Shown piece after piece: positions 14,478 through 15,235 of a stretch of 64,000 nt of DNA. The position numbers and the translations under genes were made by a program. The notes under the pieces are model-generated. The model was given only the letters and a program-made list of their open reading frames with translations. It ran no database searches and was not told the origin of the DNA. The stretch lies in sequence record PP239276.1, one strand, 5' to 3'. The first letter of the stretch is position 1. The number at the start of each line of letters is the position of its first letter. The stretch comes from Escherichia phage BME3.

Positions 14478-14822
14478 TTATGAATCTGGAATTAATTTTT
14501 TCATAGCCGTATCCAGTTCTCTTATTGTTCTCTGTTGACCACGTTTAATATCCGCATCTTTAACGTGAAGATCTTGTACATAGTCTTCAAATGTTAAATA
14601 TTCATAAATTTTAAGTAGATAATCTACACCGTAATTATCTAACGAGGACAAGGTTTCGGAGGTATTCTTAATTACCTTACAAAGAATTACTTCATACCAT
14701 GTCAAGCTAAGGGTTTGTGAGGCAATTTCAATTGCTGATTTAATTGCCGGACTTAACTCTTCGCTAGAGTCTCTATTCCTTGAAATTGGGTCAACAGTTT
14801 TCCGAAACCTCGTTTGAAAAAA
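14478..14822 (-). CDS. tail assembly chaperone, -1 frame extension (gpT-like part of a G-T fusion)
   Basis: The frame of the 75-aa ORF stays open upstream across the 47-nt gap and into the 3' end of 14753..15235, reaching the slippery heptamer. Confidence 0.5.
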   Translation of the reverse strand, partial: FFQTRFRKTVDPISRNRDSSEELSPAIKSAIEIASQTLSLTWYEVILCKVIKNTSETLSSLDNYGVDYLLKIYEYLTFEDYVQDLHVKDADIKRGQQRTIRELDTAMKKLIPDS

Positions 14823-15235
14823 GGGGCATAGTTCACCTCAAGAACTTTTGCAGCTAAGTCAACAACTAATTCTGGGTGAGCAAAAAACAATTCATCAAAA
14901 TTATCGGAAACACTGTGACCTGCTTCTGTGTAAACTTCATCTAAAATTTTACGTAAGAATGCGGCTAAGTTTTTTTCTTCCAGACCACTGAATAACTGGA
15001 TCAGCGCCATAGCAATACGAGCTTCTAGATCTTCATCTGCTGACATAAGAGCAGTATTATACATTGTCATAGGAACAGCTAGTACACTACCTAGTTCTGG
15101 AATCCTTTCAAAAACTTTAGTTGGACTCCACTTGAGAACTCTAAATTTTACACTGCGTCCTTCATCCAGATCAATTTCAACCATTACTTCTGGACGAGCA
15201 AATTTTGCAATAGTATTATCTTTTTGTTGTTCCAT
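14753..15235 (-). CDS. tail assembly chaperone (gpG-like)
   Basis: 160-aa acidic ORF between tail tube and tape measure genes. Confidence 0.55.
   Translation of the reverse strand: MEQQKDNTIAKFARPEVMVEIDLDEGRSVKFRVLKWSPTKVFERIPELGSVLAVPMTMYNTALMSADEDLEARIAMALIQLFSGLEEKNLAAFLRKILDEVYTEAGHSVSDNFDELFFAHPELVVDLAAKVLEVNYAPFFKRGFGKLLTQFQGIETLAKS
14816..14822 (-). other. programmed -1 ribosomal frameshift slippery site (T TTT TTC)
   Basis: Heptamer in X_XXY_YYZ register with the zero frame (CCT TTT TTC), 21 codons before the gpG stop; the -1 frame is open from here to 14478. Confidence 0.5.

Follow-up and report, generated by a model that had tools for sequence, protein, structure and literature searches.

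Tail assembly chaperone frameshifts in described systems

The roles of the phage lambda tail chaperones gpG and gpGT, their 30:1 ratio, and the conservation of the tail chaperone frameshift in long-tailed dsDNA phages have been described previously (Levin 1993; Xu, Hendrix & Duda 2004, 2013, 2014, summarised in PMC5009743). A tape measure chaperone frameshift was reported for Felix O1 and Mooglevirus in the Moogle announcement (PMC4319497), and the RefSeq record of the Mooglevirus Mordin (NC_041977) carries a joined CDS at the site homologous to the one studied here. Most recently, a TAC-N/TAC-NC -1 frameshift with an invariant GTTTTT motif was described for the Vandenendeviridae and Andersonviridae in the phage Adele paper (December 2025), where Vequintavirinae and Stephanstirmvirinae figure only as related clades (PMC12846349). 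Two further systems are relevant to the mechanism. In T7 gene 10A/10B, a low-efficiency -1 slip at G_GUU_UUC yields a C-terminally extended minor product, and in E. coli dnaX and IS elements a Shine-Dalgarno sequence 9-14 nt upstream of the shift site stimulates -1 shifting (PMC5009743).

The window analysed here is a 64,000-nucleotide stretch of Escherichia phage BME3 (PP239276.1). A preliminary description of this DNA had proposed an unannotated -1 frameshift joining two tail chaperone ORFs (here G and T), and the proposal was upheld by the register of the slippery heptamer, the open -1 frame, conservation of this arrangement in 49 of 50 related loci, frozen synonymous sites, and the annotated homologue in Mordin. 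We consider it very probable that programmed -1 slippage of ribosomes at T_TTT_TTC yields the long form of the chaperone, with both G and the fusion GT made from one start. The features of the locus are listed in Table 1.

Table 1. Features of the BME3 chaperone locus and of related elements in the window.
Feature	Position	Strand	Remarks
Tail tube gene	15279..15758	-	Upstream neighbour of G; Pfam KPP10_Orf10 4.5e-6; RefSeq 'virion structural protein'
Terminator-like hairpin and T-run	15256..15275	-	Between tube gene and G
Gene G, tail assembly chaperone, short product, 160 aa	14753..15235	-	From ORF list; phi92 gp132 homologue
Shine-Dalgarno-like GAGGTGA, candidate 5' stimulator	14833..14839	-	10 nt upstream of heptamer
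Second in-register heptamer C_CCT_TTT	14819..14825	-	Overlaps T_TTT_TTC; slip there would give the same protein
Slippery heptamer T_TTT_TTC, proposed -1 shift site	14816..14822	-	X_XXY_YYZ register, codons CCT TTT TTC
-1-frame part of predicted GT	14478..14816	-	112 codons and stop; base 14816 read twice
'Intergenic gap', 47 nt	14706..14752	-	Coding in the -1 frame (…ELSPAIKSAIEIASQTLS…)
ORF T in its usual annotation (75 aa, TTG start)	14478..14705	-	phi92 gp133 homologue, 'hypothetical protein'
Tape measure gene	12479..14458	-	Downstream neighbour; 659-aa ORF; RefSeq phi92 gp134 'tail length tape measure protein'
Phage tRNA-Phe(GAA) and adjacent tRNA-Pro(UGG)	29159-29314 (tRNA-Phe(GAA), 29159-29233)		

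Genomic context of the chaperone genes

The source phage is a phi92-like coliphage (Justusliebigvirus, Stephanstirmvirinae), and the window has 99.7% identity to its nearest relative, JLBYU50, and 99.2% to phi92. On the minus strand the gene order is sheath, tube, G, T and tape measure, in agreement with the claim that this is the conserved arrangement between tube and tape measure genes; the lambda pair likewise consists of two overlapping ORFs between the major tail (tube) gene and the tape measure gene. For rV5, mass spectrometry assigned the tube to gp52, the homologue of this tube gene product (PMC3606486). Both phAPEC8 and Mordin have an annotated terminator in this position, between tube and G. 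The hairpin found here probably means that G, T and the tape measure gene are transcribed less than sheath and tube.

The G protein, which is 100% identical to proteins of phi92-like phages, matches Pfam PF21822 Phage_TAC_15 (E=1.6e-22) and PHROG 3840 'tail assembly chaperone' (4.4e-54), which places the upstream ORF among the homologues of tail assembly chaperones. It differs from lambda gpG in belonging to another sequence family and to a phage with a contractile tail. T has no Pfam match, and the PHROGs that cover the T part (16039, 10409 and 8811) are listed as 'unknown function'. Sequence searches of solved structures gave no match for either G or the T part. Relatives of the chaperone occur in at least 362 GenBank phage genomes. 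For the comparisons below, relatives were sampled from 16 GenBank and 52 IMG/VR loci, and 50 unique related loci had G identity down to approximately 25%; one of the two search patterns used for IMG/VR retrieval contained the first Phe, which introduces a mild bias to Phe retention and none to codon choice.

The slippery heptamer

The 0-frame codons around the proposed slip are GCC CCT TTT TTC AAA, placing T_TTT_TTC in the X_XXY_YYZ register. The heptamer is followed by 20 sense codons and then by the TAA stop of G as the 21st codon, exactly the spacing given in the preliminary description. The lambda slip site is different (G_GGA_AAG); the BME3 site encodes Phe-Phe. In E. coli, U_UU.C ranks second-best among -1 tetramers, and UUN and AAN are the most shift-prone A-site codons (PMC4066793). 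The overlapping heptamer C_CCT_TTT is confined to the Stephanstirmvirinae-like branch.

Across 14 structural genes, 18 in-register XXXYYYN heptamers were found, 16 of which are followed by only 0-26 open codons in the -1 frame; the two overlapping heptamers at the G site are the only ones that precede a long open run (112-113 codons). Over the 3457 codon positions of the same genes, open runs in the -1 frame have a median of 5 codons and a 95th percentile of 23, and the coincidence of a heptamer with a long open -1 frame at G is not due to chance.

An in-register T6 heptamer with a -1 frame open into T is present in 49 of the 50 unique relatives. In the single exception, Vibrio phage S4-7, the in-register heptamer is A_AAT_TTT and the -1 frame is likewise open into T. 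The heptamer is T_TTT_TTC in nearly all relatives and T_TTT_TTG in the four most divergent; at the codon level, TTT is used in 49/50 loci and TTC in 45/50, the remainder having TTG or TTA. The three codons of the heptamer (NNT, TTT and TTC) show zero synonymous variation, and among 70 alignment columns with a majority degenerate amino acid, zero codon entropy was found in just five: these three and the downstream pair GGT TTC. The residue preceding the Phe pair varies (Cys, Pro or Ser), yet its codon ends in T in 49 of the 50 loci, the sole fixed third base among 84 variable-residue columns. Judged from these alignment columns, the heptamer is under constraint at the nucleotide level.

A homopolymer run at the shift site is also what would be expected of transcriptional slippage, in which RNA polymerase adds one U at T6 so that a minority of mRNAs encode GT in a single frame; one inserted U would give exactly the same protein, and in the Felixounavirus CL1, where the homologous run is T7, there is a single ORF of 213 aa. 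However, programmed slippage calls for a long homopolymer, about 9 A or T in bacteria (PMC5009743), or for a shorter run next to a nascent-RNA hairpin, and the run here is only 6 T, a length that is exactly the same in all loci. The third heptamer codon is TTC, TTG or TTA in 50 of 50 loci and never TTT, and selection is therefore not lengthening the T run. Moreover, the unvarying X_XXY_YYZ register and a Shine-Dalgarno-like element 9-14 nt upstream matter only to ribosomes. We regard transcriptional slippage as improbable, though it may occur at a low level.

Homopolymers are also prone to sequencing and assembly errors, and the related CL1 record differs by one T, so G and T might be thought to be one ordinary gene misread, or a decaying pseudogene. 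The same T6 and the same frame relation recur in 49/50 unique loci from independent isolates and metagenomes, and the 0-frame tail of G past the heptamer is conserved within each subfamily (for example KRGFGKLLTQF… and …QVNTVDQ…), which makes such an error scarcely credible. A natural in-frame G-T fusion (a 'Rosetta stone') was sought by searching 5.8 billion proteins with the 252-aa fusion as query, and only G proteins of approximately 160 aa were returned (45 of 45 homologous clusters, with no in-frame fusions). CL1, with one T more in the run, is the single in-frame case among Felix-like phages and may itself be an error.

The -1 frame downstream of the heptamer

The last -1-frame stop upstream of the heptamer is a TGA at 14840-14838, after which 119 codons are open from 14837 to the stop at 14480-14478. 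No stop in this frame had been overlooked, and the claim that it stays open through the 47-nt gap into the 75-aa ORF holds. Past the G stop, the -1 frame of relatives is open for at least 155 nt in 15 of 16 GenBank relatives and in all 52 IMG/VR loci, and their +1 frame closes within 4-94 nt in the loci from both sources. None of 67 related loci examined has a -1-frame stop within the gap, and the peptide that it encodes is conserved among relatives (SPAIEHAIQVASQTMS, TPAIEHAIDTATKTLT).

The -1-frame part of GT consists of a Q-T-R-F-R motif, a short linker and the conserved T domain; the peptide aligns as conserved over 48 loci and matches PHROG 16039 at 3.8e-45. At the Arg-Phe-Arg residues, 3-5 codons past the slip and still within G, Arg is kept through CGG/AGG and CGG/CGC/AGG/AGA/CGA switches, and the 0-frame residues at this position vary among relatives. 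By this pattern of substitution the -1 frame is under protein-level selection from three codons past the slip. The conserved GGT TTC (a T_TTC tetramer), 3-4 codons downstream of the heptamer, was considered as a main or second shift site and was rejected as the main site because the -1-frame Arg-Phe-Arg spans it and is kept via codon switches that look non-synonymous; translation at that point would therefore already be in the -1 frame.

Every phi92-like and rV5-like record inspected annotates T as a separate small protein, and PHROGs gives the T part families of its own. T might then be translated from its TTG (14705), or by ribosomes that re-initiate once past the G stop, with the shared frame being incidental. 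Against this, the TTG lacks a Shine-Dalgarno sequence and lies 47 nt past the G stop, the annotated starts of T differ in place between relatives, and the alignment of 48 loci contains no conserved start codon with a Shine-Dalgarno upstream of the T domain; only one column, a Met within that domain, has start codons in 50% or more of the loci. In addition, the peptide before the annotated start is conserved, the -1 frame is stop-free back to the heptamer in 67 loci, and the Arg-Phe-Arg motif under -1-frame selection lies inside G. A separate T protein is thus very unlikely, and from the alignments ORF T is really the C-terminal portion of GT.

Comparison with Felix O1-like and other related phages

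The G protein of Felix O1 is homologous to the profile of this family (hhalign 96.9%, E=1.6e-10), with LEVNYgxFF aligned to LEANFGSFF, and in both Felix O1 and Mordin T_TTT_TTC lies in register at the aligned position with a -1 shift into a T domain. When the fusions were compared by BLASTP, …LEVNYAPFFQTR-FRK of the source phage aligned to …LEANFGSFFRSKHFQK of the Felix-type protein. The Felix O1 and Mooglevirus loci differ in having 11 codons of G left after the slip, as opposed to 20 in the source phage, and a shorter linker with no gap between the ORFs; their frameshift is annotated in several records.

The families of the Adele paper resemble the present locus in that a downstream 'hypothetical protein' is the C-terminal part of the chaperone, the -1 frame is unbroken in all genomes, and a conserved poly-T motif is found at the 3' end of TAC-N. 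The slip codons of Vequintavirinae, CTG TTT TTC, contain GTTTTT, whereas those of the phi92-like branch, CCT TTT TTC, have no G before the run.

Candidate stimulators of the slip

The Shine-Dalgarno-like GAGGTGA, which overlaps the last -1-frame stop, has its GAGG core 13 nt upstream of the heptamer, within the 9-14 nt at which such elements act in dnaX; a GGAGG is located 13 nt upstream of the slip in Felix O1 and Mooglevirus. Its predicted duplex with the 3' tail of 16S rRNA (-9.9 kcal/mol) is the strongest of any 17-nt window in the body of G. A comparable motif (E <= -6) was found in 38 of 48 relatives, and also in Felix O1 and Mordin, and was absent from the Certrevirus and Mydovirus relatives (10/48). 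The source phage uses GAG for Glu less often than GAA (36 and 162 codons, respectively). Since GAGGTGA overlaps the conserved Leu-Glu-Val codons, the role of the element is confounded, and by analogy with dnaX it is possible that it boosts the -1 slip. The likeness to dnaX and IS elements is partial, as the upstream element of the source phage is a candidate stimulator that some relatives lack.

A search for a downstream stimulatory RNA structure, proposed as a check in the preliminary description, revealed no conserved stem-loop or pseudoknot. Folding of 115 nt of source DNA gave z = -0.25, and RNAalifold of 11 Stephanstirmvirinae-like and 14 Vequintavirinae sequences gave -1.24 and 0 kcal/mol, with no covariation or compensatory pairs; the only weak hairpin includes the heptamer itself. 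No stable conserved stem-loop or pseudoknot was found 5-9 nt downstream, and an Rfam scan of the whole window returned tRNAs only. The locus differs from dnaX, where the shift site is A_AAA_AAG and a strong stem-loop follows on the 3' side. As no conserved downstream structure was found, the efficiency of the slip may be low.

It is conceivable, though we hold it only tentatively and think it rather unlikely, that the shift site is an ancient, self-contained recoding cassette (SD-like GGAGG/GAGGTG, a 10-13 nt spacer, U_UUU_UUC and no 3' structure) kept since before the Felix O1-like, rV5-like and phi92-like split, with its efficiency set by rRNA pairing and the supply of tRNA-Phe, to which the phage-encoded tRNA-Phe(GAA) and adjacent tRNA-Pro(UGG) of Table 1 would belong. 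Were this so, the phage could tune the G:GT ratio during infection, rather than having it fixed by an RNA fold.

Proposed mechanism and product

We infer the ribosomal nature of the slip, its efficiency, and the roles of G and T from the sequence and from analogous systems. In the mechanism that we propose, most ribosomes would translate G and terminate at 14753, while a minority, with two tRNA-Phe on UUU (P site) and UUC (A site), would slip back one nucleotide, so that both tRNAs re-pair to UUU within U_UUU_UUC (14822-14816). T7 10A/10B offers a parallel, in that tRNA-Phe shifts from UUC to UUU on E. coli ribosomes (PMC5009743), and its minor product may be likened to the predicted GT; it differs in that the P site holds G_GU, the 3' element is distant, and the gene codes for a capsid protein rather than a chaperone. 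Slipped ribosomes would read on in the -1 frame across the so-called gap and ORF T. The predicted product is 252 aa (140 + 112), in line with the earlier estimate of about 250 aa, and would comprise the first 140 residues of G, the Arg-Phe-Arg motif, the linker and the T domain. The predicted tryptic junction peptide is …VLEVNYAPFFQTR.

By analogy with lambda, the fusion would be made at a low ratio to G, the G parts would coat the tape measure protein, the rarer T domain would recruit the tube protein, and neither G nor GT would be expected in the virion. The main-text account of rV5 virion mass spectrometry names tube, sheath, capsid and portal proteins, and not gp50 or gp51 (PMC3606486). 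For phi92-like and rV5-like phages, the literature search yielded neither peptides nor ribosome profiling or reporter data.

Annotation and significance

A frameshift is annotated in none of the 19 inspected records of Stephanstirmvirinae and Vequintavirinae, including JLBYU50 and the phi92 RefSeq, and the description of the site as unannotated was correct for all of them; in these records the second half is given as a separate 'hypothetical protein' with an arbitrary start. The literature search found no specific mention of the frameshift for phi92, rV5, Vequintavirinae or Stephanstirmvirinae, and the rV5 genome paper is silent on it. The proposed chaperone slip in the source phage is an ordinary arrangement for long-tailed phages, and the homologous site is already known. 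The main value of the finding lies in annotation, as a slip at T_TTT_TTC would give the T ORFs a function and mend their boundaries, and it offers a clean nucleotide signature for automated frameshift finders. Because phi92, rV5, phAPEC8 and their kin are widely isolated as therapy and biocontrol candidates, correct structural annotation is of practical use. The locus also provides a natural example of a U6C site apparently functioning with no 3' structure, and adds a deep example of the G/GT arrangement being maintained while the proteins diverge beyond recognition.

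Phage identity and tail gene order

The region from 12400 to 17300 was 99.7% identical over its full length to Escherichia phage JLBYU50 and 99.2% identical to phi92, and on this basis we assign the sequence to a phi92-like myovirus (Justusliebigvirus, Stephanstirmvirinae). Several GenBank entries that bear the name 'Campylobacter phage' and give Campylobacter jejuni as host (MG065639, MG065645, MG065656, MG065689 and others) are 99.3% identical to this region, and others so named resemble rV5-like or phAPEC8-like coliphages; mislabelling, or an origin in contaminating coliphages, is the probable explanation. 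The phi92 RefSeq record carries a 'Hypothetical tRNA' within the sheath gene (4281-4373 of L001, the fetched piece of that record; approximately 16180-16270 in the window). ARAGORN and Rfam detected no tRNA there in the near-identical window, and the annotation is likely spurious.

Domain matches identify the 160-aa ORF, G, as a predicted tail assembly chaperone. A terminator-like hairpin, AAAGGGCAGAAATGCCCTTT followed by ATTTTT, separates the end of the tube gene from the chaperone start, and a second follows the tape measure gene. Together with terminators annotated at the position equivalent to the first hairpin in the phAPEC8 and Mordin records, they suggest that transcription is reduced ahead of the chaperone and tape measure genes.

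Features of the BME3 tail gene region and tRNA array
Feature	Position	Strand	Remarks
Sheath gene	17223-15817	-	Pfam DUF3383
Tube gene	15758-15279	-	Pfam KPP10_Orf10
Terminator-like hairpin	15256-15275	-	
G, 160-aa ORF	15235-14753	-	Pfam Phage_TAC_15, E=1.6e-22; PHROG 3840, E=4.4e-54
Shine-Dalgarno-like GAGGTGA	14839-14833	-	Ends 10 nt upstream of heptamer
C_CCT_TTT	14825-14819	-	
T_TTT_TTC (heptamer)	14822-14816	-	
T, 75-aa ORF	14705-14478	-	ORF
Tape measure gene, 659 aa	14458-12479	-	ORF
Second terminator-like hairpin	12450-12473	-	
16-tRNA gene array	28518-31395	-	
tRNA-Phe(GAA)	29159-29233	-	
tRNA-Pro(UGG)	29239-29314	-	
Rfam tRNA match	30944-31022	-	38.6 bits; not listed by ARAGORN
ARAGORN tRNAs	28834-28909, 30788-30877, 31320-31395		Not reported by Rfam at gathering score

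The predicted frameshift site

Minus-strand codons across the site read …GTG AAC TAT GCC CCT TTT TTC AAA CGA GGT TTC GGA…, with T_TTT_TTC in the X_XXY_YYZ register and followed by 20 sense codons and TAA. The overlapping C_CCT_TTT is likewise in register, and a slip there would give a protein identical to that from T_TTT_TTC. In the -1 frame, TGA (14840-14838) is followed by 119 open codons up to the T stop (14480-14478), which span the 47-nt 'gap' (14752-14706) between G and T. The preliminary description had placed the heptamer 21 codons ahead of the upstream stop, with the -1 frame open through the gap into the 75-aa ORF and a fusion of about 250 aa. All of its numerical statements hold, the predicted slip product being 252 aa (140 + 112), and the missed -1-frame stop that it named as refuting is not present between 14837 and 14478.

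The chance background was taken from 3457 codon positions in 14 of the window's structural genes, where the -1 open run had a median of 5 codons and a 95th percentile of 23. These genes contain 18 in-register XXXYYYN heptamers; 16 precede 0-26 open -1 codons, and only two, both at the G site, precede a long open run (112-113 codons).

Conservation across relatives

Using tblastn, relatives of G were found in at least 362 phage records. Fifteen relatives were fetched (Stephanstirmvirinae, six Vequintavirinae genera and one Vibrio phage; G identity 84% to 20%) and 52 IMG/VR loci were added, giving 68 loci including the window, 50 of them unique. One of the two peptide patterns used for the IMG/VR fetch contains the first Phe, so the sample is mildly biased to keeping that residue, but not any codon. 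The -1 frame is open from within G through the end of T in all 68 loci; in the 52 IMG/VR loci it extends at least 155 nt beyond the G stop, and the +1 frame closes within 4-94 nt. An in-register T_TTT_TTC is present in all but five of the 50 unique loci. T_TTT_TTG occurs in four, among the most divergent, and in the most distant relative, Vibrio phage S4-7 (1779-2141 of L017, the fetched piece), an in-register A_AAT_TTT near the aligned position replaces the T6 heptamer. The S4-7 -1 frame still continues into the downstream ORF, and here the shift site appears to have turned over with the arrangement kept.

A homopolymer sequencing error at the T6 run is contradicted by the recurrence of heptamer and frame relation across the IMG/VR loci, by the peptide alignment over 48 loci, and by the outcome of querying 5.8 billion proteins with the predicted 252-aa product: all 45 matching clusters were about 160 aa, and none was a plain in-frame fusion or annotated join.

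Constraint on the heptamer and on the -1 frame

When the 50 unique sequences were aligned by codon, the 70 columns with a degenerate majority amino acid had a mean normalised codon entropy of 0.72. Entropy was zero in only five: the three heptamer codons, TGT (25/25 loci with majority Cys), TTT (49/49 Phe) and TTC (45/45 Phe), and GGT and TTC, 3-4 codons downstream. Another conserved Phe in G, away from the heptamer, is TTC in 30 loci and TTT in 19. The codon ahead of the Phe pair changes residue (TGT 25, CCT 18, TCT 5, AGT 1), but in 49 of 50 sequences it ends in T, the only fixed third base among 84 variable-residue columns. Since this base is fixed despite the changing residue, it points to selection on the X position of the slippery heptamer, of which it is the expected signature, and not on the protein. 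If transcription added a single U to the T6 run, an identical protein would result, but the run is short compared with the approximately 9 nt typical of bacteria and is never extended by TTT as the third codon, and the fixed register and the Shine-Dalgarno-like element matter to ribosomes only, all of which argues against this alternative.

In 45 of 48 loci, the -1 frame directly after the heptamer encodes (Q/H)-x-R-F-R-(K/R). CGG (31) or AGG (14) specifies the first Arg, the second is CGG, CGC, AGG, AGA or CGA, and the 0-frame residues over these bases vary (D/S/R/G/E, then F/L, then G/A/D/E). Because Arg is kept through codon-family switches, this stretch is apparently translated in the -1 frame, which would place the shift at or before the heptamer; this selection also speaks against the main shift site being the T_TTC tetramer further downstream. 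The linker after the motif varies in length, being short in the window and Gly/Ser/Pro-rich in Vequintavirinae, and is followed by a well-conserved T domain (…SLTWYEVILCKV…SETL.SLD.YG.DYLLK.YEYL…). Both products, G and the G-T fusion GT, appear to be needed, because each subfamily also conserves the 0-frame tail of G beyond the heptamer.

The TTG annotated as the T start at 14705 has no Shine-Dalgarno, and annotated T starts vary between records, the rV5 ORF being drawn with a 109-nt overlap of G. In the alignment of 48 loci, a conserved start codon with a Shine-Dalgarno occurred in no column upstream of the T domain; just one column had start codons in half or more of the loci, and it is a Met within the domain. 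Independent initiation of T is contradicted by this result, by the -1 frame being open from G into T in the IMG/VR loci, and by the Arg-Phe-Arg motif inside G under -1-frame selection.

Stimulatory elements and tRNA supply

The downstream stimulatory RNA structure for which the preliminary description proposed a search was absent: the window fold was no better than shuffles (z = -0.25), and alignment folds were -1.24 and 0 kcal/mol without compensatory changes. Upstream, GAGGTGA has a predicted pairing of -9.9 kcal/mol with the 16S rRNA 3' tail, the strongest of any 17-nt window in the G gene body, and its distance from the heptamer falls within the 9-14 nt at which such sequences are reported to promote -1 shifting (PMC5009743). 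Of 48 relatives, 38 carry a comparable element (GGAGGT or GAGGTG, -6 to -13.6 kcal/mol), as do Felix O1 and Mordin. This phage uses GAG for Glu less often (36) than GAA (162). A stimulatory role for this element is rated only plausible, because it is missing in Certrevirus and Mydovirus and overlaps conserved Leu-Glu-Val codons.

Both UUC and UUU are read by an E. coli-type tRNA-Phe(GAA). U_UU.C ranks second among shift-prone tetramers in E. coli, where the best-shifting A-site codons are UUN and AAN, particularly when the tRNA re-pairs cognately (PMC4066793). The tRNA-Phe(GAA) and tRNA-Pro(UGG) genes adjoin in the phage array and are the exact decoders of the CCU UUU UUC shift site, and Felix O1 likewise has tRNA-Phe and tRNA-Pro. 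This match may be coincidence; phage tRNA-Phe supply could affect slip efficiency. A few array members may be atypical or degenerate.

Relation to known systems

The window arrangement is a textbook case of the same kind as lambda G/GT, in which G covers the tape measure protein and GT, the less abundant product, contacts the tube protein through its T domain; the G:GT ratio there is about 30:1, and the virion contains neither of the two (PMC5009743). Felix O1 G aligns with the family profile (hhalign 96.9%, E=1.6e-10; LEANFGSFF with LEVNYgxFF) and has GGAGG, 13 nt, then an in-register T_TTT_TTC, and the RefSeq record of the Mooglevirus Mordin annotates a joined CDS at the homologous site. A December 2025 paper describes the same frameshift logic, with an invariant GTTTTT motif, in Vandenendeviridae and Andersonviridae; Vequintavirinae and Stephanstirmvirinae are mentioned there only for their relatedness (PMC12846349). 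The Felixounavirus Escherichia phage CL1 (OK040806; 301-942 of the fetched piece L073) has T7 for T6 at the homologous site, making G and T a single 213-aa in-frame ORF, the only such case seen; the record holds either a sequencing error in the homopolymer or a genuine variant in which the two are always fused.

The frameshift had been called unannotated, and it is indeed marked in none of the 19 records that we inspected; we found no paper or record that states it for phi92-like or rV5-like phages. Arrangement, conservation, codon constraint and -1-frame Arg-Phe-Arg selection agree on a tail chaperone -1 frameshift. From these sequence comparisons we judge the predicted frameshift to be real, correctly interpreted in the preliminary description, and ordinary biology: in phi92-like phages it would add a new, previously unannotated example to a well-known kind, and a neighbouring phage family has a homologous case that is already annotated. 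The -1-frame portion of the predicted fusion matches PHROGs 16039, 10409 and 8811 (3.8e-45, 7.1e-11 and 4.7e-6), whose present label is 'unknown function'; a label naming the C-terminal (T) portion of this chaperone could replace it.
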